Shown here: positions 25,705-44,122 of the stretch, one piece after another | How the letters are laid out: every line of letters begins with the position of its first letter | Numbering within the stretch: position 1 is the stretch's first letter | Origin: an uncultured Bacteroidia bacterium | Lineage (GTDB): Bacteria; Bacteroidota; Bacteroidia; Bacteroidales; F082 | Length of the DNA: 64,000 nucleotides | Direction of reading: 5' to 3' | Assembly (NCBI GenBank): GCA_902801465.1 | Contig: CADCIH010000008.1 | Coordinates: 4,772 to 68,771, forward strand | Made by a program: the position numbers and the translations under genes | The notes under the pieces: model-generated | Database searches by the model: none | Told to the model about the DNA's origin: nothing | What the model saw: the letters and a program-made list of their open reading frames with translations, nothing else

Positions 25705-27174
25705 TTAGCGGACCTCTTTTATTTCCACATAAGTTTGCGGAAGACCAGATAGTTTTTCCAATAGTTTTAACCTTTGGGTAATGATGCTTATATTATATCC
25801 TTGACTATTGATTTTAAATGACACCAGCCATCTTGATATAGTTTCCATATCGAACAGCTTAAAGCCAACGGTTAGTTTATCATTTTCATACAGGTACACG
25901 ACCTTTTGTTTTTTGTTTCTCAAAAAAGTGCTATATCCCACAAAGTAACACAGCAGGGTAATAGCCATTAGACAATGGAAAAGATTACTTTCTTCAGAAT
26001 TCGAAGACAACTTTTCTGGAGCTAATAATTGCTCCATTGAATCAACAAATTCTTGCAATGACAAATCAAAAGATGCAATCCTCTCGAATTCACTAGACTC
26101 ACATATTTTCAAATATGACAGAAAGAAAAACAGTTGAGGCAGTATTTCGCTATTAAACGGCATCCCACACAACCCTATTCTTGCGGTTGAAAACACCCTT
26201 TCGACCTGACGCAGACTAGGATGATTCTGCTTAACCAGGACCTTCGCCATGGTCAAGAACTCTTCTTTATCAAATTCGGCTTTGGCTTTATTCTGTCCAG
26301 AATAATCTATTCCAATTCGATATTCGTTTCTTAAGAACTCATCAAAACCATAATAATCATACAAGTATTCACAAAACTGATCAGCATTCGGTTCTGGCAA
26401 AAAATACTCAAAGTCTATAAAACGCCTTAAATACTCCTCTGCATCGATTTCATTGCTTCCATAAAAGCCTTTTACCGAGCAAGCTAGTTGTCGTTTGTCA
26501 ACAGCGAGGATGAAAACAATGTTCGGAACATCAAATAGATGCTTGATTCTTTCAAGCACTTTCACTGCAAAAGCAGGATTACAACGGTCCAATTCATCCA
26601 CCATAAAAATTAATGGTTTGCCTTTGTCACATACCTTCGTCATATAATCCTTAAGACTATCCTTAAACGAATGCATTATCTCTGCCCGGTCGTCTTCTTT
26701 TTTCAAAGAATCGTAAATTGTGGCTTCCAATTGCTTTGCTCCTCCTTCAATGGCACCTTTTGCAACCTCACCCAAGGAACCTGTTGCAGCGGTTAAAGCA
26801 CCCATCAACGCGCCCAAACAAACTTTTGCTCCCGTTTTTAACACATCGTCTAGGCCTTCCTCTTTTTGCAGTACCTTCATTCCACGAAGCATCGAAACCA
26901 AAGGCTCGTCGCTAATATCATCCTCCCAGGCGTTGTAGTAAACAACAGGGAAGTCTTGGTTTTTCAAGTGTTGCGACCACATCTTCAGAAAGGCGGTTTT
27001 ACCCGTTCCCCACGATCCGTTTAATGCGATAACTGCTCCACTAACAAATGTTTCCACAATGCCCGTTAATATCTCAGCATAGTCTTTTCTACCCAGCTTG
27101 TCATCTTTAAACGGCTGGGCGGGGTCTTCTATGACAAACTCCTTGGCTTTTGCTTTGATAAATTGTTTTTCCAT
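25705..27174 (-). CDS. KAP family P-loop NTPase
   Basis: Walker A LNGSWGTGKTAF and Walker B FMVDELDRC. Start set at MEKQFIK (27174) so it does not overlap the upstream gene. Confidence 0.8.
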   Translation of the reverse strand: MEKQFIKAKAKEFVIEDPAQPFKDDKLGRKDYAEILTGIVETFVSGAVIALNGSWGTGKTAFLKMWSQHLKNQDFPVVYYNAWEDDISDEPLVSMLRGMKVLQKEEGLDDVLKTGAKVCLGALMGALTAATGSLGEVAKGAIEGGAKQLEATIYDSLKKEDDRAEIMHSFKDSLKDYMTKVCDKGKPLIFMVDELDRCNPAFAVKVLERIKHLFDVPNIVFILAVDKRQLACSVKGFYGSNEIDAEEYLRRFIDFEYFLPEPNADQFCEYLYDYYGFDEFLRNEYRIGIDYSGQNKAKAEFDKEEFLTMAKVLVKQNHPSLRQVERVFSTARIGLCGMPFNSEILPQLFFFLSYLKICESSEFERIASFDLSLQEFVDSMEQLLAPEKLSSNSEESNLFHCLMAITLLCYFVGYSTFLRNKKQKVVYLYENDKLTVGFKLFDMETISRWLVSFKINSQGYNISIITQRLKLLEKLSGLPQTYVEIKEVR

Positions 27175-27193
27175 TTCTCGGGTAGGTGACGGT

Positions 27194-27634
27194 TTAATTA
27201 ATCGGAATAACTCCCCTATTATTTGGCTCCGTACTCCATTGCACCTGCCAACAGCGACCATCAATTTGATCAAGCAACAGGAAGTTATACATGTTTTCGG
27301 TAGGATAAAGAGTAAAACGGCAACAAATCTGATCTTTCGGGGTTAATATCCGAATGTTTAAGTCAAGGGCAGTTTCAAATCGGTATTCATTCCCCTTTAC
27401 ACTGTATTGCACTTGCCATATTTGACCAGTCATCGTGTCCAGTTTCAAAAACGTCCACATGTTTTGTGTCTTGAACAATTGATATCTCGGCTCTCTCAAT
27501 TGGTTCAGATACGCTTCCATGTATTGAAACATTTTGATGTCTCTTTCCGAAAGACCTTCTTGTTGAACTTCTTGCTTGCAACCAGTGATAAACAACAATG
27601 CTGTGAGACTGAATAGTAACAATGTTTTTCTCAT
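27194..27634 (-). CDS. Lipoprotein of unknown function (internal duplicated WQVQ[YW]S motif)
   Basis: Lipobox LLFITGC. Two repeats: GQIWQVQYS and GRCWQVQWS. Confidence 0.55.
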   Translation of the reverse strand: MRKTLLLFSLTALLFITGCKQEVQQEGLSERDIKMFQYMEAYLNQLREPRYQLFKTQNMWTFLKLDTMTGQIWQVQYSVKGNEYRFETALDLNIRILTPKDQICCRFTLYPTENMYNFLLLDQIDGRCWQVQWSTEPNNRGVIPIN

Positions 27635-27666
27635 ACCATTAAATTTATTGGGGGTAACGCCATATA

Positions 27667-28245
27667 TTAAAGGTCATCCATTGCGGAGTCAAGTACCTTT
27701 TCAGAGTTGATTTTGTCATAATATGAGAGCCGCACCATACCAGAACCAAACGAAGAACCTTCAAGCAGCGACAACTCAATATTGCCCAAATCAGTTGAAA
27801 ACACGGTGTACCATTCGTATTCTCCAGAATGCAAGGCCAACATTTTCAAATCATCACTGTCGCCCACGTACCCGGTAAACCTCTCGGAACGCATTTCTGG
27901 TCTGCCATATTTCTTTGTCAACATAGACTTAAGTTGTTCATAATCATTCAGCAGCGAAGACCATGTTTCTCTTTCGGGGAACAAAACGGCAATATGACTG
28001 ACGACATCGCAATTGCTCAAAGTAGACACACCAATAAGACAATCTTTGAAGCCAGCAAAATCACCAGACAAAACAGAAAGACCGTCTTCAGTCCCTTCAA
28101 ATTGAAAACCCGCCTTAATCATCGCGTTGGTATATTGCTTAAGAGTGCCATCAATTGGCACTCCCTTAAACGACAAATGCTCTTCCTGAGCCATCACACT
28201 GCCCATTATAATAAGGCAAACTAAAGTTGTTACTAGTTTTTTCAT
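27667..28245 (-). CDS. Secreted protein of unknown function
   Basis: Signal peptide MKKLVTTLVCLIIMGSVMAQ. 192 aa. Confidence 0.5.
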   Translation of the reverse strand: MKKLVTTLVCLIIMGSVMAQEEHLSFKGVPIDGTLKQYTNAMIKAGFQFEGTEDGLSVLSGDFAGFKDCLIGVSTLSNCDVVSHIAVLFPERETWSSLLNDYEQLKSMLTKKYGRPEMRSERFTGYVGDSDDLKMLALHSGEYEWYTVFSTDLGNIELSLLEGSSFGSGMVRLSYYDKINSEKVLDSAMDDL

Positions 28246-28284: not shown

Positions 28285-31200
28285 TCAGTCTATCTCGTGC
28301 CCATTGCACTCCATATCAGTGATGCACCATCCGGTGGCATAGCAATACATCGTCAGAATGATGCTGTTTGCAGCATCAATCTCTTTTTCCGTCGCCGTCG
28401 GCGATAGATGCGACTCTTCATTGCGCCACTCCTTCATGATTAGCAGCCACTGATAGAGTCGTTGCTTGGCTTCGTCCTGGCTGTATTTCAGTTGCCACAA
28501 CGGTTGAATACCGTGAATCACATTCGCCCAAGTAACATCTTCCCCTGGATTGCGCGGGGGCACTTCCTCATTGTTCATCATGTAATAAAGCTTCCTGAGA
28601 AAAGCTTCGTATTTGGTTGAAAGCAAATTATAGGCAACAAACTTGTCAACAACGCTTGCGCCTTCCTTATACAAACTATTGAAAGCACTATGGAGGAGCA
28701 TCCCTATTCCATCAAGTTTCGGAATGGTCGTGGCATCAATCACATAAAACAAGGCTGCAACAATCTGCTTCATTGGACGCATGTATTGTTTTACACCTAA
28801 CAAAGTGGTATTCGCCAAATCTTCAACCTTGGATTTGATGATGTCGATATCAACCTGTCCGCCCTGCTGTTGCTGGTTTTCAAGCTCCTTAAATCCTTCC
28901 TCCACCGAAGTCTGCTCCACCACGGCGGTCGCCATCGTGATGTCTTCGTTCAGGTAAGCCGCCAACATCTTCTCTCGCTTCTCGGCATCCAAAATGAAAT
29001 CCTTCAGATACATGGCTCCCTTGGCAATCACCATGCGCGACTTGGGTTCTTCGCCTTCCACCTTGGTGATAAACGCCTTGGTCTTCCCGTTGTCGAGGGT
29101 CAGGCGCAAATCGTTAAACCTTCCGAAGTCGTCCAGGTTCTCTTCCGTGGGGTTAGCCAGTATCAGCTGCTCCAATCCACTGATGCTCGCTCCAGTCGCC
29201 TCGGCAAACAACAACGCCTGCTTGTGCAGCTCCTTCAGCTGGTATTCGTTGATGTAGTCCTGGATGGTCTTGCCGGCCTCTGGCCTCAAATCGCCGCTCT
29301 GGATGTCGTGCAGTATCAGGATGGCGGTGCGCTGGTCTTTCTGGGGCAGCGACGCAAAGGTCTTGTGCAGCTCCCTCAGGGCTTCCTTGGTGGGCTCGCT
29401 TCCGGGACCGTCGGTATAGAGTTTCTTGATGAACCTCACAAACTTCGAGTTGATGTACTCGGCATCGATGGTGCCAGTACCTGTCTCGGTTATGTAGGTA
29501 TCCACTGGGTAGTCGAAGTCGTAGTCCGTGGGATCGCCACCTTCGCCGCCTCCAAACAGCTCGCGGTAACGCTGTAGCAGGATGAGGTAGGTGTTCTCGT
29601 CAAACTCCATCTTCACATAAGTAAAAGTATCGTCGTGCCTGAACTCATATTCGGCCTGCTCCCAAGTGAATCCTTGCAGCTTGGCAGCTTCAAGCAAACG
29701 GGTCATACTGCTGAAGTCCTTGGCAAACATGTTCTTGTCTTCCCTGGTGTCAGGCAACCTCTCAAAATTGAACAGCTCGTGCGAGAAGAAGATGTCCCTG
29801 ATGTGCAGGAACTTCCGGTTGATGTTCATCAGGTTGTCTTCAAGCTTGTCCACAAACACACCTAACGGCCTGTCCACATACACCTCCAGGGCATCGTTGA
29901 TGTTCTGCTCCATCGTGTAGGGGAACGTATAGTAATAGATGGTGCCAAACGGTTTGTCGGGACCGAACACACGGTTGGTTCTTGAGAACGATTGAATCAC
30001 GTCCACATAACGCATCACCTTGTCCACATAGAGGGTGTTCACCCATTTCGAGTCGTAGCCGGTCAGCATCTGGGTCACCACAATGAGCAGGTCTATCTGC
30101 TTCGTGTGGTCGTGGTCGATGTCCTTGTAGGGTTTCTTGTGGGCCAGTCGCTTGGCCACGTCTTTCTTGTATTGCAGGTAGTTGGGCAGTCCAAACTGGG
30201 TCTGGTACTTGCTGTTGTAGTCGTCAAGCATCTCCAGTATGGCATCCTCTCGGGCAATGCCCTCGTCGCTGTTGTCGATGTTGTTGTCAAAAACGGCCAC
30301 CACGTTCATCGATGAGTATTGCGTCTTGAACAGCTCATAGTAGGCAATGGCCTCGGGGATGTTCTTCGTGGCCAGTATCGCATGGAACTTCCTGTTTTTG
30401 CTCAGACGTTCAAACTTGCCCATGATGTCGGCAGCTACGGCCTGATGGTGGATGTCCTGCTGGTAGAGCTGCTTGGGTAGGTAGTGCTCCACGCCGTGTT
30501 TGGTCTCACCGTTCTCGGTGTAGGTGTCCACCATCTTCATCTCGTGCATGAACTGGTCATACACCTTCATGGCTTCCTCGTTGTCTTCGATCTCTTCCAG
30601 GCTGTGCACCTTCAGCTGGGCAAAGGCGGCCTTCTCTCTCAGCTCGTCATCGTCGTATGTGTTCACGCGGTACGGGTCAAAGCCCAGCACGTTACCGTCG
30701 GGAATGCCGTTGGCGATGGTGTATTTGTGGAGCATGTCGCCAAAGATGGTGGCTGTGGTGATTTCGTTGTGGGCATTCTCCTCAAACACGGGAGTTCCCG
30801 TAAAGCCGAAGAGCAGTGCCCTCGGGAAGGTGTGCTTGATGGTCATCAGCATCTCGCCGAATACCGACCGGTGGCATTCGTCAATGATGAACACCAGCCG
30901 TTTCTTTCCAATGCGCTCGATGGTCTCGGGGGTGATCAAAGCGCCCGGCACCACGTTCGACATCTTTTGGAGCGAAGTCACAATCAGTCGGTTGTCGGGG
31001 TCGTTGCTTTCCAGCTTGCTCACCAGTATCTGGGTGTTCTGGGTGTCTTGTATGGTATCGTCTTCTCCGGCAAAGCCCCGGTATTCGTCGAGCGACTGTA
31101 TGCCCAGCTCTATCCTGTCCATCAGGAACACCACTTTCTCGGCATCGTTGCTGGTGGCAATGAGCTGTGCCGACTTGAACGAGGTCATCGTCTTGCCCGA

Positions 31201-32118
31201 TCCCGTCGTGTGCCAAATGTAGCCGCCTCTATGCTCATGGTCGTCCCAGTTGGTCTTGTGGGTGATGTCGCATATCTTGCTGGTGGCGTAGTATTGGTAC
31301 GAGCGCAGCACCTTCAGGGTCTGGTCTTTGTCGTCGGCAATGGTGTAGTAGCCTATCAGCTGGTGGGCCATCGGTATGTTGAGCAGCTCGGCCACAACGC
31401 GGTTCCATTCAAAGATCTCGTTGTTGTTGAAATCGGCCCAGTGGAACTGGAACTCTTTCTGGAACCGGTCTTCACTCCCGGGGTTGGCAAAGTAAAGGGT
31501 CTTTTCGGGGGTCATGGCCACAAATATCTGCACCATGCTGAAGATGCCGCTGCTAAACACGCCTTCGTGCATGTAGCGCTTCAGCTGGAACACGGCTTGC
31601 GACACATCCACCCTGCTCCGCTTCAGCTCCACATGGATCACGGGCATACCGTTGATGAGCAACAGCACATCGCCTCTTCTATCACCGGCCAGTGGGTTGC
31701 TGGCCTTGAATCGGGGCTGGCGCACAATCTGGTAGCGGCTTTGCCCCGAGCTGATCTCAGCGGGGTCGAATATCTTCAGATACACTTCCTTGCCGTAGTT
31801 CATCGTGTCGGCAGGGTTGTCGCGCTTGATGCAAACAAACTTGCCATTGATGAACTTGTTCACCTTGTAGGGACTGCCGGCCATGTTCACCTGGTCAACA
31901 ATCTGCTGCATCTCCGTCGGGGTAAGCGGATAGTTGCCCAGCCGCTCGTTCTCGCGGTTCATGTCGTAGATGATGTTGGCCCAGTTGTCAATCAAGTCCT
32001 GCTCCGTCGGGTGGTGCATTATCTCAGTACTCCACCCGTGGTTGGGCAGCAATTCGCACAAGGCGTTCTCAAACTCCAGCTCCTTCTCAAAAGGACGAAT
32101 GTTTAATGTGTTGCTCAT
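28285..32118 (-). CDS. hsdR: Type I restriction enzyme R subunit with a C-terminal HEPN-like extension
   Basis: PD-(D/E)xK region GDVLLLINGMPVIHVELKRS. Helicase motifs HTTGSGKTMTSF, FIIDECHRS and TGTPVF. 1277 aa, with a C-terminal tail containing RNEESH (Rx4H). Confidence 0.9.
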   Translation of the reverse strand: MSNTLNIRPFEKELEFENALCELLPNHGWSTEIMHHPTEQDLIDNWANIIYDMNRENERLGNYPLTPTEMQQIVDQVNMAGSPYKVNKFINGKFVCIKRDNPADTMNYGKEVYLKIFDPAEISSGQSRYQIVRQPRFKASNPLAGDRRGDVLLLINGMPVIHVELKRSRVDVSQAVFQLKRYMHEGVFSSGIFSMVQIFVAMTPEKTLYFANPGSEDRFQKEFQFHWADFNNNEIFEWNRVVAELLNIPMAHQLIGYYTIADDKDQTLKVLRSYQYYATSKICDITHKTNWDDHEHRGGYIWHTTGSGKTMTSFKSAQLIATSNDAEKVVFLMDRIELGIQSLDEYRGFAGEDDTIQDTQNTQILVSKLESNDPDNRLIVTSLQKMSNVVPGALITPETIERIGKKRLVFIIDECHRSVFGEMLMTIKHTFPRALLFGFTGTPVFEENAHNEITTATIFGDMLHKYTIANGIPDGNVLGFDPYRVNTYDDDELREKAAFAQLKVHSLEEIEDNEEAMKVYDQFMHEMKMVDTYTENGETKHGVEHYLPKQLYQQDIHHQAVAADIMGKFERLSKNRKFHAILATKNIPEAIAYYELFKTQYSSMNVVAVFDNNIDNSDEGIAREDAILEMLDDYNSKYQTQFGLPNYLQYKKDVAKRLAHKKPYKDIDHDHTKQIDLLIVVTQMLTGYDSKWVNTLYVDKVMRYVDVIQSFSRTNRVFGPDKPFGTIYYYTFPYTMEQNINDALEVYVDRPLGVFVDKLEDNLMNINRKFLHIRDIFFSHELFNFERLPDTREDKNMFAKDFSSMTRLLEAAKLQGFTWEQAEYEFRHDDTFTYVKMEFDENTYLILLQRYRELFGGGEGGDPTDYDFDYPVDTYITETGTGTIDAEYINSKFVRFIKKLYTDGPGSEPTKEALRELHKTFASLPQKDQRTAILILHDIQSGDLRPEAGKTIQDYINEYQLKELHKQALLFAEATGASISGLEQLILANPTEENLDDFGRFNDLRLTLDNGKTKAFITKVEGEEPKSRMVIAKGAMYLKDFILDAEKREKMLAAYLNEDITMATAVVEQTSVEEGFKELENQQQQGGQVDIDIIKSKVEDLANTTLLGVKQYMRPMKQIVAALFYVIDATTIPKLDGIGMLLHSAFNSLYKEGASVVDKFVAYNLLSTKYEAFLRKLYYMMNNEEVPPRNPGEDVTWANVIHGIQPLWQLKYSQDEAKQRLYQWLLIMKEWRNEESHLSPTATEKEIDAANSIILTMYCYATGWCITDMECNGHEID

Positions 32119-32132
32119 ATTGATTGGTTGTT

Positions 32133-34115
32133 TTATGCTATGAATTGATTAAGGCAAGCCTTCTTCATTTGGTTCAGTTTCTCCAACTGCTGCGTCTCCA
32201 ATGAAATCCGCTTGTCAAGACAGGTAAAGAAAGACGCAATGCGATTACGTTCTTCTTTCTCCTTGGGAATATAGAACTGGCATTTTTCAAGTTCATCCTT
32301 ACTCAGATTTCCAATCGTTCCATTTCCACCTGACACACCAGTTACAAGAAACTCTTTATACCAACTGGCTCCCATGCAAGCATTTAAGAACTCTGCTTCG
32401 TCTGACGACACAAGATACATAAAGCCTCCAGGAACCATTTTATCATTTTCGCACGACACCAGGCAATGTTTGCCAACCAACCTTGGCGACCCATTTGCTG
32501 CTGTCACAAGAATATCTTTGTTTTTTGCCAATGGTATATTAACGCATTGGGCATCGACAAACACGTCCGAAAATGATACAGTGAACGCATCCTCATCTAT
32601 ATTAGATGAACGCAAGACACGAACGCCTCTGTCACAAACATCCTCTGGACTATAAGTAAGTCCTCGCCTAATCGTTGCTATATCACTGAATCTAATCATA
32701 ATCCATTCTCCGTTAAATCCTCTGAATCTGAGGGGGGGGGTAATTGATTGATTATCAGTGAATAACAATCTTAGACAAGATTGCTTCATCTCTTTAAGTC
32801 GCTCTAATTGTTCATGTTGAGCAGAAATCTTCGAATCAAGTTGATTGAAAAACTCCGCTATTAGTTTTTGTTCTGAAGAATCCTTTGGATGACGAATGGG
32901 CATTTGTCCAAAGATTTCATCAGATATAGACAACCTGTCAAATCTTGCACCTGTATTGCCATTGTCAAACATGAATTTATGCCATCTATTTGTTTTGAAA
33001 AAACAACTCAGATAATCTTTGTCAATGCCATCAACTTTGAAAACATAATAGAGTGGCGACATTACACCCGCATAGCCTAATTGGTTTCTATTTATTGGAC
33101 CAACAGGAGCTGCGGTAGAAATACGAGGATTATACACAAAATCATCGTTTTCAACTACATAATACCCTCTAATGTTATCGCCATTGGATATATCATGGTC
33201 AAAAAAGTCTAACTGATTGATAATTCCAAATTCAGCTGAATTAGTCAAAGTTATTCTTACTGCCAAGTCAGTATTCTTCTTCGTCACTTTCTTGCTAATT
33301 TCACTTAGTTTAGTGACAACCCAGTCATCATCAAAACCTTTAAAACGAAGAGCTGGCACACTTTCGTTTTGCAGCGGAAACATCGTTTCTAAACAAGCCG
33401 ATTTGAGTTGTTTCAACTCTTCAAACTGTTTTTGATAAACCGTCACCTGTTCGTCGAGCCTCTGCAAGAAAGATGCGATTTTTCTCTGCTCATCAATATC
33501 CTTCGGAATCATGATATAGCCAGTAAGCGCAGTTTCATCGCTGATATTCATGGTGTTTTTGGCTCCTTTGTTCACCAACGGCCTCATGTAAGCATTCAGC
33601 CGCCATGCAGGATCAAAGTAGTAGTGAATATACTCAGGAGCAACACCCTCTTTGGTGTTATATACAGCATAGAGTACGGACACTATACCGGCTTTGCCTC
33701 TATTCATTTTCACGATGCCGTATGGCTTCGCCCTAAGTGGTGATTTCGTATAAACAATCTGCCCAGGGCGCAAAATCTTATAGCCACTCACTGACTTTCC
33801 TGCATAGCTCCTGCCAAGATGCTCTATCTGATTAACCACGCCGTAGTCATCAGAAACCGACAAAACATCTTCAACGCCAAAAGCGTTGTCGATGTTTTTC
33901 TCATCCGATATTTCAAGGCAGTCGCTAAGCAACTTCTTTTCCCACGCTCCTTCAAATCCTTTGAAGCGCAGTCTTGGGGCACTCTCCCCTTCTTGCGGGA
34001 ACAGCATATGGACACAATCCTCCAAACTGCTGCAGGAGGTCTCTTCAGGCGTGGTCAGCACCAGCTCGTCCACCTGCCCGTCATCGCCTTGTAATATGAT
34101 CTCTTTCTCAGCCAT
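32133..34115 (-). CDS. hsdS: Type I R-M specificity subunit with three TRD-CR modules
   Basis: Three module starts: RLRFKGFEGAW (aa 48), ALRFKGFDDDW (aa 255) and PLRFRGFNGEW (aa 461). Three coiled-coil conserved regions: EQRKIASFLQRLDEQ..., EQKLIAEFFNQLDSK... and ERNRIASFFTCLDKR.... Confidence 0.85.
   Translation of the reverse strand: MAEKEIILQGDDGQVDELVLTTPEETSCSSLEDCVHMLFPQEGESAPRLRFKGFEGAWEKKLLSDCLEISDEKNIDNAFGVEDVLSVSDDYGVVNQIEHLGRSYAGKSVSGYKILRPGQIVYTKSPLRAKPYGIVKMNRGKAGIVSVLYAVYNTKEGVAPEYIHYYFDPAWRLNAYMRPLVNKGAKNTMNISDETALTGYIMIPKDIDEQRKIASFLQRLDEQVTVYQKQFEELKQLKSACLETMFPLQNESVPALRFKGFDDDWVVTKLSEISKKVTKKNTDLAVRITLTNSAEFGIINQLDFFDHDISNGDNIRGYYVVENDDFVYNPRISTAAPVGPINRNQLGYAGVMSPLYYVFKVDGIDKDYLSCFFKTNRWHKFMFDNGNTGARFDRLSISDEIFGQMPIRHPKDSSEQKLIAEFFNQLDSKISAQHEQLERLKEMKQSCLRLLFTDNQSITPPLRFRGFNGEWIMIRFSDIATIRRGLTYSPEDVCDRGVRVLRSSNIDEDAFTVSFSDVFVDAQCVNIPLAKNKDILVTAANGSPRLVGKHCLVSCENDKMVPGGFMYLVSSDEAEFLNACMGASWYKEFLVTGVSGGNGTIGNLSKDELEKCQFYIPKEKEERNRIASFFTCLDKRISLETQQLEKLNQMKKACLNQFIA
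32732..32740. repeat. G9/C9 homopolymer inside hsdS at the CR2/TRD3 junction
   Basis: The plus strand reads a-ggggggggg-t. On the coding strand this is ACC CCC CCC CTC (T-P-P-L, aa 458-461). Confidence 0.95.
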
Positions 34116-34127
34116 ATCTCATCCCCC

Positions 34128-36698
34128 TTATAAGTTCAGCTTACGCAAGCCTTCCAAGGCGTACTCGTCACCATTGAGGTCAGCCACCAAATCAGCCATT
34201 TGTTGCTTGGCCTCAGCCAGCTTCTTATCAAGGTCTTGGTACGAGACAGAATACTTGTGTACGAGTATCGTCACGCGGTTTTCTATCTCCCTAAGCACCT
34301 CGGTCAGTGTCCTATTGACACCTGCCACAACCGGGTCAATCCATTTCTTGTGCAGGAACATTTCCACCTCCTCGTCGGTCAGGTGCTCTATGGCCTCCTT
34401 GGTCTTGTCTATCAATTCGGCCTTGGCCTCTTTGATTTCCTTTTTCACCTTGGTTTGCTCTTCCCATAGCTTCACCAGTCTCACCAGCTTCGCCTTCGTC
34501 TCAGGCTCTATTTCGTCGCCCTTGGCCTTGGCATCCTTCTTTATCTTCGCTTTGTCCAACTTCGGGTCGTCGTCGCCGTCCAGATACTCCTGTGCCTCCT
34601 CTTCCGTGAAGCTGTCCCGCAGCTCGTCAACCTCAGTGTCTATCTCCTCATTTCGCGCTTCCTTCTCGCTTATGGCTTGCAGTTCCGCTTGGAACAAGGT
34701 TTCCTGCACCATCGGGAACGGGATGATACGGCCTTTCAATCCATCGGCCACTTCTATTTCCTCGTCACCCTTTTTCACCAGCTTATAAGCCGTCTCAACC
34801 TTTCTTGCCGCATCCATCCCTTCGGTCTGCAAAGTCTCTATATCGTTGGCAATCGTCGTCCATTCGTTGCTTAAAGCTTGGTAGGCAGCATAGCGGTCTA
34901 CCAATGGAATACCCTTATTTCTCAGGAAAATGTCATCCGCTATTTCATAGCGTTCCTTCATTTCCCTCACAGTGGCCACGTTGGTGATCAACCTACGGTG
35001 TAGTTCCTCGTCAAAGCCTTCAAACGCCTGCTCAAACTGCTGACGCAGCTTGGCAGTGTCGCGGTCGTGGGCAATAACGCTGGCCACGTCATCGGACGTA
35101 ATGGCCGAATAGGGTTTGTCCTCCGCTGGCTGGAACAACTCCACCCGCAACGAGGGCAACGCCTCCCAGTACTCCTTCAATCGGTCTATCTCGCTGTTAG
35201 GGATGCCGCCAAACATGGTAGCATAGATGTCATAAAGCTCAGGAGCCTCCGACGAATCCACATACCGAGGGATATTCAGGTTGTAATTGTTCTGTCTAAT
35301 GATATCACGGCTTACCTTGCGCGAATAGCCTGGCTCGTCGCTGCGCAGGCGCACCGTGTCGGCAATGCGCTTGATATCGCAATCACGCAGCCTGTTGTTC
35401 TTACCATCCTTCACGAAGCCCTTCGAGGCATCGATGATCAGCACATCGTCATTCTGACGGTGCTGCTTCAGTACCATGATGAGCGTAGGAATACCCGTGC
35501 CAAAGAAGATGTTGGCAGGTAAACCGATGATGCAATCAATCTGGTTTTTCTCAATCAGCCTCTTACGGATTTTGCCTTCTCCCTCATCCTCTGGGTCACC
35601 TCTGAACAATACGCCGTGAGGCAACACGATAGTCAGGATGCCGTCTGGCTTCAGGTGGTGTAGCTCATGCAGCAGGAAGGCGTAGTCTGCCTTGCTCTTC
35701 GGTGCAACACCATAGTCCTTGAAGCGGGCATCCAGTTCAGCGTCCGTGGGGTCCCAGTGCTGCGAGTAAGGCGGATTTGATACCACGGCATCCACATACA
35801 GCGGTCGCCCTGCATTGGGGCCAGTCTTTTCGATTGGCCAGTCCTCATCTAATGAGTCGGCGCAGCGCGTGTCGATGTTGCCTGGTCTGATACCACGCAT
35901 CACAAGGTTCATGCGCGTCAGGTTGTAGGTGTTTTCCTTCAGCTCCTGCGCGTAGTATTTCACGCGGTTGCGGTCTTCTATGTGACGGCCAACACTCTTA
36001 CCGATAGTGATGAGCAGCGAACCCGAACCGCTCGTGGGGTCGTAGATTTCAATCTGCTTTTTGTCCTTATGGTGCTCGGCCACGATTTCCGACATCAGCA
36101 TGGCCACCTCATGCGGAGTGTAGAACTCTCCAGCCTTCTTTCCCGCGCTTGCGGCAAAGTTGCTGATAAGATACTCGTACACATAGCCCAGCACGTCATA
36201 GTCCTGTGAGCCGTCCGTGGGAATATCCTTGATGAGCTTGATCAAGTCTTTCAAAGCCTTGGTCTGCGAAGCTGGATTTTCGCCAAGCTTGCTCAATCCG
36301 GCTTGCAGGGTGATGAAGATTTTCTCATACACATGCTTATAGTTGGGGCTAATCATGCGATCAAACGTGTTGAGCGCAACGCTCAGGTCGGCCACGTTGA
36401 ACGTGCTATGAGGCAGCAGCCATGTCGAGAAAAGGTTTTTATATTCGATGAAATAGCCGATGCTGTTTTTGCAGTCCTCAATGGTCACGGCCATATCTTC
36501 GTCGTCATAGTTTTCAACCAGGTCTGGCAAATCCTCTTCCGTCCATCCGCTCTTCTTCAGATGGGCAACCTCGTTATCCGAAAGGAACTTATAGAAGATA
36601 AGGCCAAGAATATAGTCCTTATACTCACTGGCATCAATCTTCGACCTCATCTTATTGGCCGAAGCCCAAATCCTGTTTGCTAGTTGTTGTTTGTTCAT
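34128..36698 (-). CDS. hsdM: Type I R-M N6-adenine DNA methyltransferase subunit (long form)
   Basis: HsdM_N-type N-terminus (LANRIWASANKMRSKIDASEYKDYILGLIFYKFLSD), SAM motif YDPTSGSGSLL and catalytic VVSNPPYS. The C-terminal extension of about 350 aa is coiled-coil-rich. Confidence 0.9.
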   Translation of the reverse strand: MNKQQLANRIWASANKMRSKIDASEYKDYILGLIFYKFLSDNEVAHLKKSGWTEEDLPDLVENYDDEDMAVTIEDCKNSIGYFIEYKNLFSTWLLPHSTFNVADLSVALNTFDRMISPNYKHVYEKIFITLQAGLSKLGENPASQTKALKDLIKLIKDIPTDGSQDYDVLGYVYEYLISNFAASAGKKAGEFYTPHEVAMLMSEIVAEHHKDKKQIEIYDPTSGSGSLLITIGKSVGRHIEDRNRVKYYAQELKENTYNLTRMNLVMRGIRPGNIDTRCADSLDEDWPIEKTGPNAGRPLYVDAVVSNPPYSQHWDPTDAELDARFKDYGVAPKSKADYAFLLHELHHLKPDGILTIVLPHGVLFRGDPEDEGEGKIRKRLIEKNQIDCIIGLPANIFFGTGIPTLIMVLKQHRQNDDVLIIDASKGFVKDGKNNRLRDCDIKRIADTVRLRSDEPGYSRKVSRDIIRQNNYNLNIPRYVDSSEAPELYDIYATMFGGIPNSEIDRLKEYWEALPSLRVELFQPAEDKPYSAITSDDVASVIAHDRDTAKLRQQFEQAFEGFDEELHRRLITNVATVREMKERYEIADDIFLRNKGIPLVDRYAAYQALSNEWTTIANDIETLQTEGMDAARKVETAYKLVKKGDEEIEVADGLKGRIIPFPMVQETLFQAELQAISEKEARNEEIDTEVDELRDSFTEEEAQEYLDGDDDPKLDKAKIKKDAKAKGDEIEPETKAKLVRLVKLWEEQTKVKKEIKEAKAELIDKTKEAIEHLTDEEVEMFLHKKWIDPVVAGVNRTLTEVLREIENRVTILVHKYSVSYQDLDKKLAEAKQQMADLVADLNGDEYALEGLRKLNL

Positions 36699-36766: not shown

Positions 36767-38335
36767 TTAATCGTCAGTTATTCCATGTTCATACGTCGTT
36801 GACTCTTCCAACGACACTCCCCTATATGCCTCTTCAACGATGGCAAAAAGCGTCCTGTAGGAAATCAGCGGGATTCTCCTGTCGTCACTTCCGCACAGCG
36901 CCAATCCAAGTGCGGTTGATAACATGGGGATCTTGTTTGACACTTCCAAAGCATCATCTATAGAGTAACTATTCAACAATGCAGAGCCCATATGTATTAC
37001 ATCGGTAAAGCCCATATACGGCTTGCGTAACTCAGGTATCATTGAACCGCCCCCAGTGAAAACGACAGGTCTTTTTGTGACAATATCGGTTGCTTCGCTT
37101 TGTTTGACTCCAATACTTTGTGCATGGTGTTTTATCTTCATCGAAAAGTAATCCATCCTGTTTTCAACCGCTTTGAAGTGTGCGTCTAGCCCATCTTTTT
37201 CAATGGCATTTACGCCATAGGGTATCGATACGTAGTCAAAGATCTTCACTTCATCGCCAAGTGGAGCCACAAAGATACTTATATCCGTAGTACCACCGCC
37301 AATATCCACCACAGCGTTTACTCCCGTTCCAAATCGTTTCTGCATCGCTAATGGATTAAGGTTGGCGTAGGCTTCCGGGAACACAAATATTTGGTTATCC
37401 TCTTTGGCTGTCTCAGTAAACTCTTTGATGCGAGTTACGCTCTTTAGTTCATCAAGGGTAGCCGCCAAAAACAGTTCCTTATCGTGCTCAAAAACATTCT
37501 CAATCAAGTCATACACCGTCAGGATAATCTGGGTCGCCCTCCGCTTGTTTGTATCCCAATTCTTTTGTCCGCTCGATGTGCCCATGCTGACAATAAGGTT
37601 TTGGGTTCCATATTCCGCATCCAAGTCAAAAAACACAAAACACAGATACCAGATTGACACCAACATTGGATCCAAGTCAAACCGCCATTCAAAACCATCC
37701 GAAAACACCATTTGCTTAAAACTTCTGAATGTCGCCGGAATCATTTCTTGTTCCCTATGCTCATATTCCTCCCATATCCGCATCCTGCGTTCATAATCAT
37801 TCCGAAGCCTCTCATTAAACGCATCCACTTCTTGTTTGTCCTGGGCGATATCTTTGTCCCGTTGAATGCATTTTCTTTCATACTCTGCTTTGGCTTCCTC
37901 ATATAGTTCCATCTCTATCTTGCGACGCCATGCTTCTTTCTCAAGCTGTTTTTTGTTCTCAAGTGCTTGTCTCAAATCTGAGAAGGCTGAAATCGTATTC
38001 TTCTTTTTCTTTTGATTGCCATCAGCAGGAGCTTCCGGCCTTTTAGGTTCTGGAAACTGTTTGTATTTGCGATATACCGGCATCTCCGGCCTTTCCGGTG
38101 CTTTGTCTTTTGCTACCGCCACAACCATAGCCGCATCGTCTATATCGACAAAACCATACGAAAGAGTGTTGTCTTTATTAATCTGAACTACTGACGGAAA
38201 AACAAAACCTGGATCGCCGTTCTGGTCCCGAAATCTATGGAACAAATATCTCCTATTCCTTTTGTCCGAACTATCCTCAATACATATCTTGGTATAGTGA
38301 GTTCCAAAATCCAAACCAACTTTTACAGCAGCCAT
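36767..38335 (-). CDS. Hsp70/actin-fold (ASKHA) ATPase with a large charged coiled-coil insertion
   Basis: Phosphate-1 motif VGLDFGTHYTKICI, phosphate-2 motif VVDIGGGTTDISIF and adenosine motif VFTGGGSMIPELRK. An insertion of about 110 aa is K/E/R-rich (aa ~95-205). Confidence 0.75.
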   Translation of the reverse strand: MAAVKVGLDFGTHYTKICIEDSSDKRNRRYLFHRFRDQNGDPGFVFPSVVQINKDNTLSYGFVDIDDAAMVVAVAKDKAPERPEMPVYRKYKQFPEPKRPEAPADGNQKKKKNTISAFSDLRQALENKKQLEKEAWRRKIEMELYEEAKAEYERKCIQRDKDIAQDKQEVDAFNERLRNDYERRMRIWEEYEHREQEMIPATFRSFKQMVFSDGFEWRFDLDPMLVSIWYLCFVFFDLDAEYGTQNLIVSMGTSSGQKNWDTNKRRATQIILTVYDLIENVFEHDKELFLAATLDELKSVTRIKEFTETAKEDNQIFVFPEAYANLNPLAMQKRFGTGVNAVVDIGGGTTDISIFVAPLGDEVKIFDYVSIPYGVNAIEKDGLDAHFKAVENRMDYFSMKIKHHAQSIGVKQSEATDIVTKRPVVFTGGGSMIPELRKPYMGFTDVIHMGSALLNSYSIDDALEVSNKIPMLSTALGLALCGSDDRRIPLISYRTLFAIVEEAYRGVSLEESTTYEHGITDD

Positions 38336-38336
38336 A

Positions 38337-41300
38337 TCAGATTATTTTTATCAAGTTCAACATCATTAGTTTATCGGAAACGGTTGGTTCGCTAACCGAA
38401 TCCAATTCCTGTAACCTCAGCACAAGGTCATCTTTAAGTTTTCTCAGCTGACCCCTACGGGCAGGCAACACTCTTTCAAGGTTTGCCTTCTTTTCCAACA
38501 GAGTCCCCTCGCTCCCATCTTCAAAGAAATCATATGTTGAATCACCCCTTCCTTCGCCAATTAAAATGTCACAAACCCTGATGTTGGTTTCAAACCTTTC
38601 GATGGTCTCCTCTTCATCTTTAATCTGCTTTTTATACCTCGCTTCAATTCCGTTCCGTTGATGCTCAATGTCGTTCCTTTGCTTCCTCGAAACGATTTCC
38701 TTATAATCATTTCTGTAGTCCCTTATCGAATCCGCGAAACAAGACCTCATATCATCTACAGCCTTCTCGTCGGGACGATAGACATCCTTCGAATCCCATG
38801 GCAATCCCGAAGTTTGGACGGATCTGTAAACGGCATCCACAAACTCCTGGTCTGCCACTATGTCCATTCTTCCAACATCATACAAAACGGGATGCACCTC
38901 TTGCGTTTTCCTTGATTGTCCATACCTGAATGATTCCGTGACAACATTATAAATAGCTAAAACGTAATAGCCTTTGTTTATCGCCATCCCTTCTTCAGTA
39001 TTCATATCAGAGCATTTAAGTTGATAGCGAAATACGCCAGCTTCTTTTTCAACCTGTTCTTTAATTTTTTCTTTGGCTACAATCACGAAAGGATGGTAAA
39101 TACTTAGATATGGTATGGCTCGATTGGTTTCGGCTACTTCCTGGCTAAAAGTCACCTTGAACGACGATTTGTCCCGAATGGTATTGACAAAGCCCTTGAT
39201 CATGTCACCATTTTCACCTCGGAGTGTGGTGTAGGTATTCAACAGGTTTACAATTACCTTCGGCTGGCTCTGGGGAACGGAAATTGAAACCAATCCATCT
39301 TTGTTGGCCTCACTTATGGTACACGTAGGAAGTGTCTGCTTGAAAAGCATCCTAACATAGTTCTCAAGTTCCTGTTCTGTGACGTATGCTTTATTGTTGA
39401 TGATGGCATTCAAATGGTCGCGCAAATAGGAGTCGCTGGTGAAAGTGGTTGATAACTCCCTTTCTATTTTTTTCGAATCTTCCATATTGCGTTGCAGCGC
39501 CCTGTCAATTCGCGTCAGCTTTTCTTCCCGTTCCTGCTCCGTTAGTTCTATACGATACAGGTTGCTCTCTAACTCATCGGCTATAGTGGTATTTTCATCT
39601 AGCCTTTGGCTCAAAATAGGTTCCAGGTCACCTATGGTCCTTCTAAATTCTTCTATTCTTTCCTGTAACCTGCTGTGTATCCTTTCCTGAACCGTACCTT
39701 TCACAAGCATGTTATAGATGTGGATAATCTTCGATTGTTGACCGATTCTGTCAATTCTACCGATTCGTTGTTCAACAACCATGGGATTCCATGGCAGGTC
39801 ATAGTTTACAATGGTATCGCAGAATTGCATGTCAAGACCTTCGCCACCAACCTCTGTCGATAGCAAAACCGTAACAGATTTGTCTTTCTTAAACTCGTCC
39901 ACTGCATTGATACGGCTTAACCTGTCGAGCATTTTACCGCTGATAACACGGTAACCGATTTTATTCATGGCAAACCTTGCAGCCAAATAGTTGATCGTAC
40001 TATGGAAATGGGCGAATACTATGACTTTCCCGTTACCCTTAGTCTGGTTCTCATGTATAATCCGCATCAGTGCATCATACTTGGAATCAACCAAGCCTTC
40101 ATAGTTATAGGTATCGCTATCGTTGGCATAAAGACTACTGGCTATCATCTGTTGGTGCGTGGAACTCGCTAGTGGCGACAGACCTTTAAGGTCATCCATA
40201 AACATATCAAACAGCTCTTGTTCGTCCTTGTTCAATTCAACCTTGACGGTTATCGTGTCTCGCTTCGCTTGTGAAAGATCGGTCGTAACGTCCACCTTTC
40301 GTGTTCTTGACATAATGGAACTCAACGGATTGATGTCATACAAATCGCTTTGAATCAAAGTCCTTTGTTTTGGTGTGTCCTCCCCTTTTAGTTTTTCCAT
40401 CAGAGGCTCAAACAGCGGCAATCTCCTTACATAATCATCCTCGTCAATCATATCATCCAACCCCTTCCTTATCTCCTCAAACGAAGCATTCCCGTTAAGG
40501 CTATTAAGCGCCCACACAAAAGGTTCGTTATGCCTTGACTCATCTTCAAAGACGGATTCACTATCATAGCGTTGACTGTTTAGTAGGTTGAGCAGATGAT
40601 AAAGATTCGTCCGTCCAAGCATAATGGGTGTTGCCGTAAGGAACACTGCCGACTGGGCGTGACGCAACAACCGCTCTATGGCGTCATGCTGCTTGGTATT
40701 GGCATTGCGTACCCTATGTGCCTCATCACACACTACCAAGCTGAATTGATATCCCAAGTCCTCTACCTCTTTGACCACGCTCTTTTTCTTTGTATCCCGT
40801 AACGTATCGTATGAAATAATGCCTCGGGCGTTTCCATTATGCGATCTCAATTCTTTCAATAGCTCATCTTTTTTGTCGTATATTTGAAACATCAAGCCAA
40901 ACCTATCCTCAAGTTCCCCTTGCCATTTGTTTCTTAATCCTCCAGGGCAAACCACCAATACATTCTTCAGCTCATTCCTGGCTTTCAACTCAAGCATGAT
41001 ATGGCCGGCCTCAATGGTTTTACCCAAACCCACTTCATCAGCGATAAGCAGCCTCTGAAGGTCCGAGTTTAAGAACTTCATTAATGGGATGTACTGGTAG
41101 GTCTTGAACATCGTCCTCGATGCCTTAATGGACGACAATGTGTTATTGCTCGAGTTCTCAATCTTAAATGTCGTGTTGAACACCTGAAAGTCGTTGTACC
41201 CCTTAAAATCCCCAAGAACACATCGATCGAATAAATCTTTCACTTCGACAAACCGTTCCAGGTCTCTTTCCGTTACATCTCTGATATCCTCTTGACCAAA

Positions 41301-41411
41301 AAAAACACTATATTTTTGATCGCCTCTTACATGAGGCAATACCTTGACAACTGTTCCTCTTTGGTTGGTATTGATGTCGGTTACAACATCACCTATATTA
41401 AACTCGGCCAT
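38337..41411 (-). CDS. SNF2-family helicase, RapA/HepA-like, with an SH3/Tudor-like N-terminus and an uncharacterised C-terminal domain of about 420 aa
   Basis: Motif I ADEVGLGKTIEAG, II LVVCDEAHRVRN, III FLTATPI, and V/VI LLSTEVGGEGLDMQ...NYDLPWNPMVVEQRIGRIDRIGQ. The N-terminus reads FNIGDVVTD...RGTVVKVL. Confidence 0.85.
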   Translation of the reverse strand: MAEFNIGDVVTDINTNQRGTVVKVLPHVRGDQKYSVFFGQEDIRDVTERDLERFVEVKDLFDRCVLGDFKGYNDFQVFNTTFKIENSSNNTLSSIKASRTMFKTYQYIPLMKFLNSDLQRLLIADEVGLGKTIEAGHIMLELKARNELKNVLVVCPGGLRNKWQGELEDRFGLMFQIYDKKDELLKELRSHNGNARGIISYDTLRDTKKKSVVKEVEDLGYQFSLVVCDEAHRVRNANTKQHDAIERLLRHAQSAVFLTATPIMLGRTNLYHLLNLLNSQRYDSESVFEDESRHNEPFVWALNSLNGNASFEEIRKGLDDMIDEDDYVRRLPLFEPLMEKLKGEDTPKQRTLIQSDLYDINPLSSIMSRTRKVDVTTDLSQAKRDTITVKVELNKDEQELFDMFMDDLKGLSPLASSTHQQMIASSLYANDSDTYNYEGLVDSKYDALMRIIHENQTKGNGKVIVFAHFHSTINYLAARFAMNKIGYRVISGKMLDRLSRINAVDEFKKDKSVTVLLSTEVGGEGLDMQFCDTIVNYDLPWNPMVVEQRIGRIDRIGQQSKIIHIYNMLVKGTVQERIHSRLQERIEEFRRTIGDLEPILSQRLDENTTIADELESNLYRIELTEQEREEKLTRIDRALQRNMEDSKKIERELSTTFTSDSYLRDHLNAIINNKAYVTEQELENYVRMLFKQTLPTCTISEANKDGLVSISVPQSQPKVIVNLLNTYTTLRGENGDMIKGFVNTIRDKSSFKVTFSQEVAETNRAIPYLSIYHPFVIVAKEKIKEQVEKEAGVFRYQLKCSDMNTEEGMAINKGYYVLAIYNVVTESFRYGQSRKTQEVHPVLYDVGRMDIVADQEFVDAVYRSVQTSGLPWDSKDVYRPDEKAVDDMRSCFADSIRDYRNDYKEIVSRKQRNDIEHQRNGIEARYKKQIKDEEETIERFETNIRVCDILIGEGRGDSTYDFFEDGSEGTLLEKKANLERVLPARRGQLRKLKDDLVLRLQELDSVSEPTVSDKLMMLNLIKII

Positions 41412-41471: not shown

Positions 41472-42479
41472 CTATTTTCCATACAAATCAAAAGCTTTGG
41501 TTAAACGTTCTTTTATTCTGTCTTGAAGCTCTTGTGGTTCAAGCACCATAATACCTTCACCGTACGACAGCAACTGTTGCTGCAACTCGAAGTTCAAATA
41601 AACCTCAATGGTGATGATGGCACCGCTGTCGTCAACGCTAAGCACATGCTGTGACCCATGGAGAGGTTTGGTCATGATGTAAGGCCATGTTTCGGGCGAT
41701 ACCCACAGCTTTATAAGCCGGGGTTCTTTCCTGGAGTCTTTGGACACACCGATCATTTCATCGAAATAATCAAAGAAATCAACATCAGTAGGACGATATG
41801 GCTCAGAAGAGTCATCGATGGCAACAATGCGGTCGAAAGCATAGTTGGCCATAAAGTCAGCCTCGGCATTCCAGGCAATCAGGAACCAACGCTTGTTGTA
41901 CTGCTTAAGGTAATAGGGATGAACCGTGATGGTCCTTTGTTCGCTATGCCCAAAACCTTTATAGGTCAGGCGAAGAGCCCGCTTGTCAATAATGGCATTG
42001 AAAAGTGGCGTAAAGTGTTCCATTCCCTTCAGATCAAGATTCTCGTCGAATCCCACCACCTCCTCCGTCGGCACCTCATCAATCTTCAGCGATGCGCCCA
42101 ACCTATCGGCAATCTCAGTAATCCAATCGAATTGCGGCATCCCACGAAAACGCTTCAGTAGGCTAAGGGTTTGTATGAGTTGTACCGTTTCATCGGGTTT
42201 CAGCAGCGACCTATAGATGGAAAAATCAGGGTCGGCGTAATGGTAATAAATATTCCTCCCCTCACGGTAATGCTCAACCGCCGCTCCCGGATAAATCCGC
42301 TCAATCTGCTCGATATCGTTGCGGATGGTATTCATTGCAGTGATGGGCTGAAAGTCTCTCCTCTCAAGCTCTCGGTTGCACAATTCGAACATCTCCGCCG
42401 TAGAGTAATCGCGGTTGCGGTCGCTCAAGCAGCGGTCAATGACCTTGATGCGCAAATCGGAACTTTTGGAATTAGGCAT
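41472..42479 (-). CDS. HTH plus WYL-domain transcriptional regulator (BrxR/CapW-like architecture)
   Basis: N-terminal wHTH-like region. WYL region TITVHPYYLKQYNKRWFLIAW. C-terminal extension domain. Confidence 0.8.
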   Translation of the reverse strand: MPNSKSSDLRIKVIDRCLSDRNRDYSTAEMFELCNRELERRDFQPITAMNTIRNDIEQIERIYPGAAVEHYREGRNIYYHYADPDFSIYRSLLKPDETVQLIQTLSLLKRFRGMPQFDWITEIADRLGASLKIDEVPTEEVVGFDENLDLKGMEHFTPLFNAIIDKRALRLTYKGFGHSEQRTITVHPYYLKQYNKRWFLIAWNAEADFMANYAFDRIVAIDDSSEPYRPTDVDFFDYFDEMIGVSKDSRKEPRLIKLWVSPETWPYIMTKPLHGSQHVLSVDDSGAIITIEVYLNFELQQQLLSYGEGIMVLEPQELQDRIKERLTKAFDLYGK

Positions 42480-43306: not shown

Positions 43307-44122
43307 TTATGGCCTTCGGGTCGTTTCGAGCCTCAACTTAAACGCCAAATAATTGCCCTGGTCTTTCTTGGAAGTGTAAACGGCGAACTCGATCGTACTG
43401 AAATGGCTCAGCAACTCGGGAACGACTAACTGGTAAGCCGATGCCACCACATTGGGATCGTTTCGGAACGCGCCGCAGCCAAAAGCACCCAAAATCAGCA
43501 CCTCAGCGCCATTCTGGGCCGCCACAGCCATAATCCTTCGGGCACGCCGCTCGTGGATGGCAAACAACGCCTCAGAGCTAATCTCATACTCAAACAGATT
43601 GGGTGCCGCACAGGTGATCACATCCACAACGAAAGGCTCCGACAACAGGTTGTAATCGTCGTCCTTGATCACCACCACACCAGGGGTGTAGATGATGTCG
43701 TCGTTGTGAAGCGGATTGCGAGCGGCACGGTGCGGCGCATAAAACCGCTCCCACATCGCCTTGTCCTTCAAGCATGGATACAGCGTCGAAACCCTGCAGA
43801 GACACTCCTCCTGGGCCGAAGCGCCCGTTTCGACACCACCGCCAGGCGAGGTGGACGAAGCGAAGTTCAACACCGCCACCTTCTTTCCACGGTAGTTTGC
43901 CGCGGCCTCGAACGAACGGTTATGGGTCACCAGCACCTTGGCAGGCTCCACATAACGAGGCACACCGGCATCGATCTGCTCCCCCTCGGGAACGAATACT
44001 TGTTTGGTGATGCTGTCCTTTACCGCCATCTGCAGCTCCGGATTGCTCTTGACACGCGACATGGTATCCCTAAACACCGATACCAGCTGTTTCTTTCTTT
44101 CAAAATAGGATGAGTAGCTCAT
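43307..44122 (-). CDS. TIGR02452-family macrodomain (microbial PARG-like) protein
   Basis: Motifs VAVLNFASSTSPGGGVETGASAQEECLCR, VITCAAPN and LILGAFGCGAFRNDP. Confidence 0.75.
   Translation of the reverse strand: MSYSSYFERKKQLVSVFRDTMSRVKSNPELQMAVKDSITKQVFVPEGEQIDAGVPRYVEPAKVLVTHNRSFEAAANYRGKKVAVLNFASSTSPGGGVETGASAQEECLCRVSTLYPCLKDKAMWERFYAPHRAARNPLHNDDIIYTPGVVVIKDDDYNLLSEPFVVDVITCAAPNLFEYEISSEALFAIHERRARRIMAVAAQNGAEVLILGAFGCGAFRNDPNVVASAYQLVVPELLSHFSTIEFAVYTSKKDQGNYLAFKLRLETTRRP

Follow-up and report, generated by a model that had tools for sequence, protein, structure and literature searches.

A homopolymeric tract as the probable length switch of a three-module type I specificity subunit gene in Bacteroidales

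Three modules in one hsdS reading frame

The hsdS gene examined here, which encodes the specificity subunit (HsdS) of a type I restriction-modification (R-M) system, lies in a stretch of 64,000 nucleotides (nt) of contig CADCIH010000008.1 (assembly GCA_902801465.1, from an uncultured bacterium of the Bacteroidales), hereafter called the window, to whose first letter all positions refer. It occupies 32133-34115 on the minus strand, from an ATG at 34115 to a TAA stop at 32135-32133, the plus-strand frame over the same interval being full of stops, and in the allele at hand it encodes 660 amino acids (aa), arranged as an N-terminal extension followed by three modules, each consisting of a target recognition domain (TRD) and the helix of a conserved region (CR). 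A sequence-only reading of the window had already described three tandem units of about 205 aa in this open reading frame (ORF), and the description holds for the minus strand: Pfam PF01420 (Methylase_S) matches the product in three separate stretches (expect value, E, 6.9e-19), and end-to-end self-alignment of the units gives 33% identity between modules 1 and 2 (E 5e-34), 24% between modules 1 and 3 (E 4e-13) and 24% between modules 2 and 3 (E 3e-15). The third unit, which aligns over its full length to both of the others, is a real TRD-CR module, as had been proposed.

Module 1 (aa 47-247; 33375-33977) carries TRD1, of type A, and the CR1 helix; module 2 (aa 248-453; 32757-33374) carries TRD2, of type C, and the CR2 helix; and module 3 (aa 454-660; 32136-32756) carries TRD3, of type H, and the CR3 helix, all on the minus strand. 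These assignments draw on self-alignment, TRD typing and an AlphaFold2 (AF2) model, to which the ratio of nonsynonymous to synonymous substitution rates (dN/dS) is added for module 3. Each module has one start motif, P-x-LRF[KR]GF..W, at aa 47-58, 254-265 and 460-471, in line with the starts at aa 48, 255 and 461 given by the sequence-only reading, and each ends with the conserved helix motif EQ..IA.F...LD...L..K..CL. The part of the latter that reads EQ/ER..IA.F...LD begins at aa 209, 415 and 622, and AF2 places a helix of 39 residues after each TRD (aa 207-245, 413-451 and 620-658), which agrees with the coiled-coil CRs that had been expected at about 206-247, 413-452 and 619-660.

The Methylase_S match, the long CR helix after each TRD and the location in an operon with hsdM and hsdR identify the product as an HsdS protein. 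The PADLOC profile Specificity_I matches it as well (E 2e-114), and to PADLOC profiles of this kind any two consecutive modules look like a canonical two-TRD HsdS, residues 251-657 for example matching positions 6-408 of 411. Whereas the canonical M2S1 scaffold has exactly two TRDs per polypeptide, the frame read here holds three modules. The AF2 model, a monomer built on an alignment of 24 sequences, has a mean predicted local distance difference test score (pLDDT) of 72.9 and a predicted template modelling score (pTM) of 0.47, with TRD3 largely below a pLDDT of 50; compared with solved structures by Foldseek, it retrieves ordinary HsdS proteins (1yf2, 7vs4, 2y7c and 1ydx), aligned over about two modules.

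The N-terminal extension (aa 1-46; 33978-34115, minus strand) is modelled as a beta-hairpin (strands 2-9 and 15-22) followed by a helix (31-37). It ends in a sequence that recalls the tail of a CR, LEDCxxMLFPQEGE, and so resembles the junctions between modules; canonical relatives of about 409 aa have no such extension.

A cytosine tract between modules 2 and 3

After the end of CR2, and ahead of the LRF.GF motif that opens TRD3, the gene contains an uninterrupted run of nine cytosines (C9; G9 on the plus strand) at 32732-32740 of the minus strand, corresponding to gene nt 1376-1384 and read as the codons ACC CCC CCC CTC (T459-P-P-L462). This tract, at the junction of modules 2 and 3 (junction 2), was overlooked in the sequence-only reading. 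Given the codon usage of this genome, T-P-P-L would be written as an unbroken C9 with P = 0.0095. The consequences of a change in length were computed in silico by rebuilding the gene with C7 to C11, and in these reconstructions the tract behaves as a frameshift switch at the CR2/TRD3 junction. Module 3 is fused to the other two only at a tract length of 3n, C9 giving the 660-aa three-module protein. At C8 or C11 (3n+2) the product is a two-TRD HsdS of 472 or 473 aa with the tail ...TPP(P)SDSEDLTENGL, the TGA stop of this frame overlapping the ATG of M473 as ATGA (32696-32699, minus strand), and this ATG opens a 188-aa ORF that holds TRD3 and CR3. At C7 or C10 (3n+1) a two-TRD HsdS of 466 or 467 aa results, with the tail ...TPP(P)QIQRI and a TAA stop at 32713-32715 (minus strand), 18 nt before the M473 ATG.

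The ATGA overlap could couple translation of the third module. That TRD3 has a conserved start codon of its own, from which a half-subunit could be made, was considered as well and not retained: a methionine just after the module start is present in 7 of the 16 distinct contexts of module 3, compared with 4 of the 19 of module 2 and 1 of the 12 of module 1, an enrichment that is weak and suggestive at best.

Tract length among relatives

Do other alleles display the lengths that these reconstructions cover? HsdS matches number in the thousands among the 5.8 billion clustered proteins searched, and the lineage counts given here come from the best 120 of them plus the window protein; P numbers denote protein cluster representatives and L numbers related DNA loci, the window being L016 and L007 being the same as L019. 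Within this set, 64 sequences have the N-terminal extension in common (MAKQEI...LEDCxRMLFPQEGE), and 43 of these 64 cluster representatives, the window included, are in-frame three-module proteins of 636-673 aa, the 42 besides the window showing 33-93% identity. Junction 2 reads ...FPQNGGG... in 32 of the in-frame proteins and ...DNQSITPP... in 9, which makes 41 of the poly-G or poly-C type. The remaining 21 of the 64 are 450-476 aa long and end directly after the junction-2 tract, their tails being frameshifted translations of the start of TRD3. Both alternative frames are represented among them, and the tail ...TPP(P)QIQGI of P0023, P0036, P0065, P0109 and P0120 matches the C7/C10 frame; canonical relatives of about 409 aa end normally (...ACLDKMFV).

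At the DNA level, a scan of genome collections yielded 14 loci, 8 of them in Bacteroidales/Bacteroidia or Prevotella metagenome genomes. Among related loci the tract is C8 in L001, L004, L006, L007 and L021, C9 in the window and L017, and C10 in L018 and L020, the out-of-frame C8 thus being the commonest state among the poly-C loci; in L001, L004 and L021 (all C8) the ATGA arrangement has been called as two overlapping genes. Two pairs of loci are especially close. Over 7,718 nt, L017 and L018, from two metagenome assemblies, are separated by one mismatch and a gap of 1 nt in the tract; for L003 (G8) and L002 (G6) the comparison spans 2,447 nt and shows three mismatches besides the tract difference. 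In all loci the tract is unbroken despite substitutions in its flanks. The 90%-identity cluster of P0004 likewise contains forms of 673 and 674 aa (GGG versus GGGG), together with products of 462 and 465 aa truncated at junction 2, products of 275 and 276 aa that break off at an additional C-tract, at junction 1, and downstream ORFs of 390 and 219 aa. A 188-aa TRD3 ORF that had been called separately on a C8 contig falls into the cluster of the window allele.

In addition to the poly-G at junction 2, L002 (7758) and L003 (1184) have a C8 run between TRD1 and TRD2 (junction 1), where the window allele lacks a tract. With two tracts, such alleles could reach more than three expression states.

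It could be argued that the fused ORF arose as an error of sequencing or assembly, that the locus in truth consists of a two-TRD hsdS followed by a separate half-size hsdS, and that C9 is a miscalled C8 or C10, since homopolymer length is error-prone and the close relatives L001, L004 and L021 have just this layout of C8 with two overlapping genes. We regard this as very unlikely, because the 2,084 nt that were compared with an independent Logan contig are 100% identical, C9 included, because the identical 660-aa protein is found in NCBI, ENA and Logan on three contigs of up to 97 kb, and because junction 2 is read through in frame in dozens of divergent alleles. The recurrence of the identical protein in the three sources, taken with the 42 further in-frame representatives, shows that no one-off assembly error is at issue; any single contig may carry a miscall, and the three-module frame itself is real and common in the lineage. 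The sequence-only reading had considered that raw reads might reveal an artefact of two adjacent genes. As to the fused ORF, its presence in independent assemblies speaks against this, and the two-gene state is itself a real alternative phase and not an artefact.

A second reading accepts the fused protein and denies the switch. The gene would then encode a constitutive three-TRD subunit with a fixed non-canonical stoichiometry of its own, C9 would merely code for Pro-Pro, and the truncated relatives would be sequencing errors or dead alleles. Such a view can appeal to the majority held by in-frame forms (43 of 64 representatives), to the recurrence of the exact 660-aa protein in independent assemblies and to the fact that all modules are intact and conserved. 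It is nonetheless improbable in our judgement, as it leaves several observations without a place: poly-C or poly-G stands at the same junction in different alleles and is uninterrupted despite the divergence of the flanks, both alternative frames recur, near-identical contigs differ essentially in tract length, the commonest poly-C state is out of frame, and in some alleles junction 1 has a tract too, with truncated products to match.

Outside the lineage, a census with a one-module profile against 1.84 billion representatives found about 18 of the best 150 matches to be at least 560 aa long with at least three matched stretches, a proportion that is no true frequency because the ranking favours multi-module proteins; several of the long matches are exact internal duplications or read-through junctions. 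Three-module ORFs are recurrent but a small minority. P0022, P0117, P0134, P0205, P0238 and P0250, all from outside the lineage, are HsdS-like ORFs with three or four modules, some containing exact duplications of a whole TRD-CR unit and others short non-CR linkers into the next TRD. These ORFs may stem from collapsed assemblies or from read-through along cassette arrays, in which case they would not be genuine multi-TRD subunits.

Selection on module 3 and exchange of TRDs

If module 3 is read only in some phases, is it maintained? Compared with its counterparts in L004 and L017, TRD3-CR3 of the window has 87-88% aa identity, with synonymous differences (pS) of 0.68 per site, a synonymous rate (dS) of about 1.8, which is saturated, and a nonsynonymous rate (dN) of 0.08; the resulting dN/dS of about 0.04 points to strong purifying selection on the third module. 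TRD typing describes the window allele as A-C-H. Types A, B, C and I are found at positions 1 and 2, position 3 draws mostly on a TRD pool of its own (D, F, H, J and others), and across alleles the types combine combinatorially at all three positions. Taken together, the low dN/dS and the shuffling of TRDs argue that module 3 is no remnant but a recognition module that is both maintained and exchangeable.

The same shuffling, with the separate pool at position 3, might suggest that recombinational exchange draws on the third module as a silent donor cassette, as in invertible hsdS loci, and that the module was fused by chance read-through; some three-stretch ORFs of Firmicutes in the census do look like read-through into neighbouring cassettes. 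This we consider extremely unlikely here. A tblastn search for other hsdS fragments found only the three modules of this gene, no significant inverted repeats were found in the 25-44 kb region, and no recombinase domain was Pfam-detectable among the eight cluster ORFs scanned. Module 3 is, moreover, co-oriented with modules 1 and 2, and it has the full junction motif and a full-length CR that ends like a canonical C-terminus. Switching by an inversion shufflon or inverton was ruled out on the same three grounds: inverted repeats (25-44 kb), extra hsdS cassettes and a recombinase (eight ORFs) were all missing.

The hsdM-hsdS-hsdR operon

The gene forms part of a compact minus-strand operon in the order hsdM-hsdS-hsdR, the hsdM stop lying 12 nt upstream of hsdS and the hsdR start 14 nt after the hsdS stop. 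hsdM (34128-36698, minus strand) encodes 856 aa with the Pfam domains HsdM_N and N6_Mtase and a full-length match to the PADLOC profile MTase_I (PDLC03022); its N6-adenine methyltransferase core shows the motifs NPPY and DPTSGSGS, and among solved structures it is closest to 3lkd (E 5e-102) and the M subunit of EcoR124II (7bst_D, E 1.4e-72), both far ahead of that of EcoKI (E 4.5e-9). hsdR (28285-32118, minus strand) encodes 1277 aa with the Pfam domains HSDR_N, SWI2_SNF2, T1R_D3-like and EcoR124_C (PF12008, E 8e-16). An HsdM whose nearest solved structures are 3lkd and the EcoR124II M subunit and an HsdR with an EcoR124_C domain together indicate a complete, type IC-like system by sequence, the classical definition of the type IC family being by genetic complementation or cross-reacting antibodies.

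HsdM has a charged C-terminal extension of about 370 aa (aa 490-856; window 34128-35228) that looks largely helical and gave no match to Pfam or the PDB. The idea that the long HsdM is an adaptation to three modules was rejected, since L014 combines an HsdM of 858 aa with a canonical HsdS of 403 aa and since a full-length PADLOC MTase_I profile of 857 positions already exists. HsdR for its part reaches about 270 aa past the EcoR124_C domain (window 28285-29100).

Relation to known phase-variable systems

A gene design of this kind has been reported. Atack et al. (FASEB J 2019/2020; PMC7383803) describe, in their article text, 'extended' phase-variable hsdS genes with a G[n] repeat in Mannheimia haemolytica and an AAGAC[n] repeat in Fusobacterium nucleatum, the repeat lying between TRD2a and TRD2b; the two-TRD form of M. 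haemolytica methylates CAACN4GT and the extended form CAACN5TC, the third TRD replacing the second as partner of TRD1. The resemblance to that account is close: three TRDs are present in one ORF at a permissive length of the repeat, which lies between TRDs 2 and 3, other lengths yield a two-TRD HsdS plus a downstream out-of-frame TRD (labelled S1 + S2 in REBASE), and several allelic TRD variants exist for each position. Differences are found in the host, the present lineage occurring in Bacteroidales gut and rumen metagenome genomes and hence in another phylum, in the tract, which is poly-C here and poly-G in sister alleles, in the lineage-specific N-terminal extension of 46 aa, and in the second tract at junction 1 of some sister alleles and the ATGA stop-start overlap. 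A literature search found the term 'extended HsdS' in no paper besides that of Atack et al.; a later paper (PMC12429846) cites three-TRD HsdS as evidence for non-canonical assemblies and gives no mechanism.

The position of the simple sequence repeat (SSR), the three- or two-TRD outcome according to its length and the length variation among alleles, all of them properties of sequence, assign the gene to the 'extended' hsdS class by its architecture. A real feature, it is a conditional and probably repeat-switched fusion of an already described kind. The point made by the sequence-only reading that a three-module subunit breaks the symmetry of HsdS remains valid, with the amendments that the third module is conditional on the C9 tract and that the three-TRD form had already been published (PMC7383803).

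Other systems share some of these traits. In SSR-switched full-length or truncated hsdS genes such as NgoAV of Neisseria gonorrhoeae, a homopolymer between TRDs toggles subunit length and, through it, specificity, as that of the window allele would do, and the relative L007 even has the two-module layout of the NgoAV kind, with C8 after module 1; the NgoAV switch is, however, between two TRDs and one, whereas that of the window allele is between three and two. The type IC systems of the EcoR124I family have in common with the present one the EcoR124_C domain of HsdR, an HsdM nearest to 3lkd and EcoR124II M, and the gene order, and they differ from it in the HsdM of 856 aa with its long tail, the HsdR of 1277 aa and the three-module HsdS. 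With the hsdS shufflons (SpnD39III; the type I R-M system of Bacteroides fragilis, PMC7641763) the gene would share phase-variable type I specificity in host-associated bacteria, Bacteroidales among them, but it employs a frameshifting homopolymer in place of the inverted repeats, silent cassettes and recombinase, none of which was detected here (the last among the eight cluster ORFs).

The locus is best explained, and in our view probably so, as an SSR-switched 'extended hsdS' of a complete type IC-like R-M operon. The module anatomy, the consequences of tract length for the frame, the length polymorphism among near-identical alleles and the purifying selection on module 3 are what the sequences themselves document in its favour. 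Several considerations pull in the other direction. Homopolymers of 8-10 nt concentrate sequencing and assembly errors, and part of the length variation could be technical. The variation is seen between alleles, from which heterogeneity within one population would have to be extrapolated. Runs of C8 or longer are not rare in the 64-kb window (3 matches against 1.5 expected), so that the case rests on position, conservation and length polymorphism and not on the run itself. The AF2 monomer, modest throughout and poor for TRD3, is silent on how the CR helices pair. The ATG after the tract is not kept in all TRD3 types, which makes separate expression of TRD3 uncertain, and the switch in specificity would follow entirely by analogy.

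Proposed switching and subunit assembly

The tract-length polymorphism among relatives suggests slippage as the source of variation: slipped-strand mispairing at replication would alter the length of the poly-C and with it set the reading frame, which would make the switching heritable and reversible. By the precedent of M. haemolytica, the fused form would be expected to change the specificity of both methylation and restriction. In the C9 phase the enzyme would recognize a TRD1+TRD3 site, TRD3 displacing TRD2 as the partner of TRD1, and at C8 or C10 a TRD1+TRD2 site; the C8 phase may also yield the TRD3-CR3 half-subunit of 188 aa, translated through the ATGA overlap.

How could TRD1 and TRD3 come together? 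In canonical HsdS every CR helix ends next to where the partner TRD begins, and with this geometry and a rigid CR2 the TRD1 and TRD3 of one chain could not pair, whereas those of two chains could. The AF2 monomer and its Foldseek comparison were tried as a guide to the pairing of CR helices, and the modest model gave no indication of it. It may be speculated that the pairing is most easily met in a domain-swapped S2 dimer of chains A and B with the contacts 1A-3B, 2A-2B and 3A-1B. Half-size HsdS proteins act as homodimers on palindromic sites. Perhaps, then, the homopolymer is a re-pairing switch that out of frame yields S(TRD1+TRD2) and a coupled TRD3+TRD3 homodimer, and in frame a swapped S2 dimer that specifies both TRD1+TRD3 bipartite and TRD2+TRD2 palindromic sites. 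We offer this tentatively and think it rather doubtful; if true, it would amount to a hitherto undescribed higher-order assembly of a type I methyltransferase and would account for the TRD1+TRD2b specificity published for the extended form of M. haemolytica.

Phase-variable type I methyltransferases reshape genome-wide methylation, with effects on phage and plasmid barriers and on gene expression. Known phase variation in Bacteroidales is dominated by DNA inversion, and repeat slippage would add a second route to it. The three-TRD design, so far reported from two pathogens (article text of Atack et al.), is widespread and diversified in gut and rumen Bacteroidales, where the lineage, with its dozens of TRD combinations, two tract chemistries and alleles of one or two tracts, offers good material for the question of how three TRDs and three helices assemble with HsdM and choose their targets. 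For annotation it follows that one gene, in its two phases, can be recorded either as a pair 'hsdS plus truncated hsdS' or as an hsdS of 660 aa.

Genomic surroundings

At the head of the gene cluster stands a putative regulator with WYL/WCX domains by Pfam (41472-42479, minus strand), and between it and hsdM (36767-41411, minus strand) lie a SNF2/DrmD-like helicase of 1024 aa and a protein of 522 aa that shows no convincing family match and only faint hits of the FtsA/MreB type. In L002 and L004 an ORF of about 340 aa is located directly upstream of hsdM without the helicase and 522-aa pair; this ORF is by its position a putative WYL homologue, and the pair may be an inserted or accessory defence module.

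Apart from the hsdS tract, the only run of at least eight cytosines in the window is an intergenic one at 10138-10145 (plus strand), about 0.5 kb downstream of an integrase-like ORF (8991-9575) and with no sign of function. Immediately downstream of hsdR lies a gene for a KAP-family P-loop NTPase (25705-28245, minus strand; PADLOC PDC-S20, E 5e-127), accompanied by small unannotated ORFs of 192 and 146 aa, and a PARG-like gene is found at 43307-44122. The KAP NTPase region and the PARG-like gene mark the segment from 25.7 to 44 kb as a defence island among chromosomal housekeeping genes, the wider window being chromosomal in content, with Rho, DnaB, a Mur ligase and MatE.

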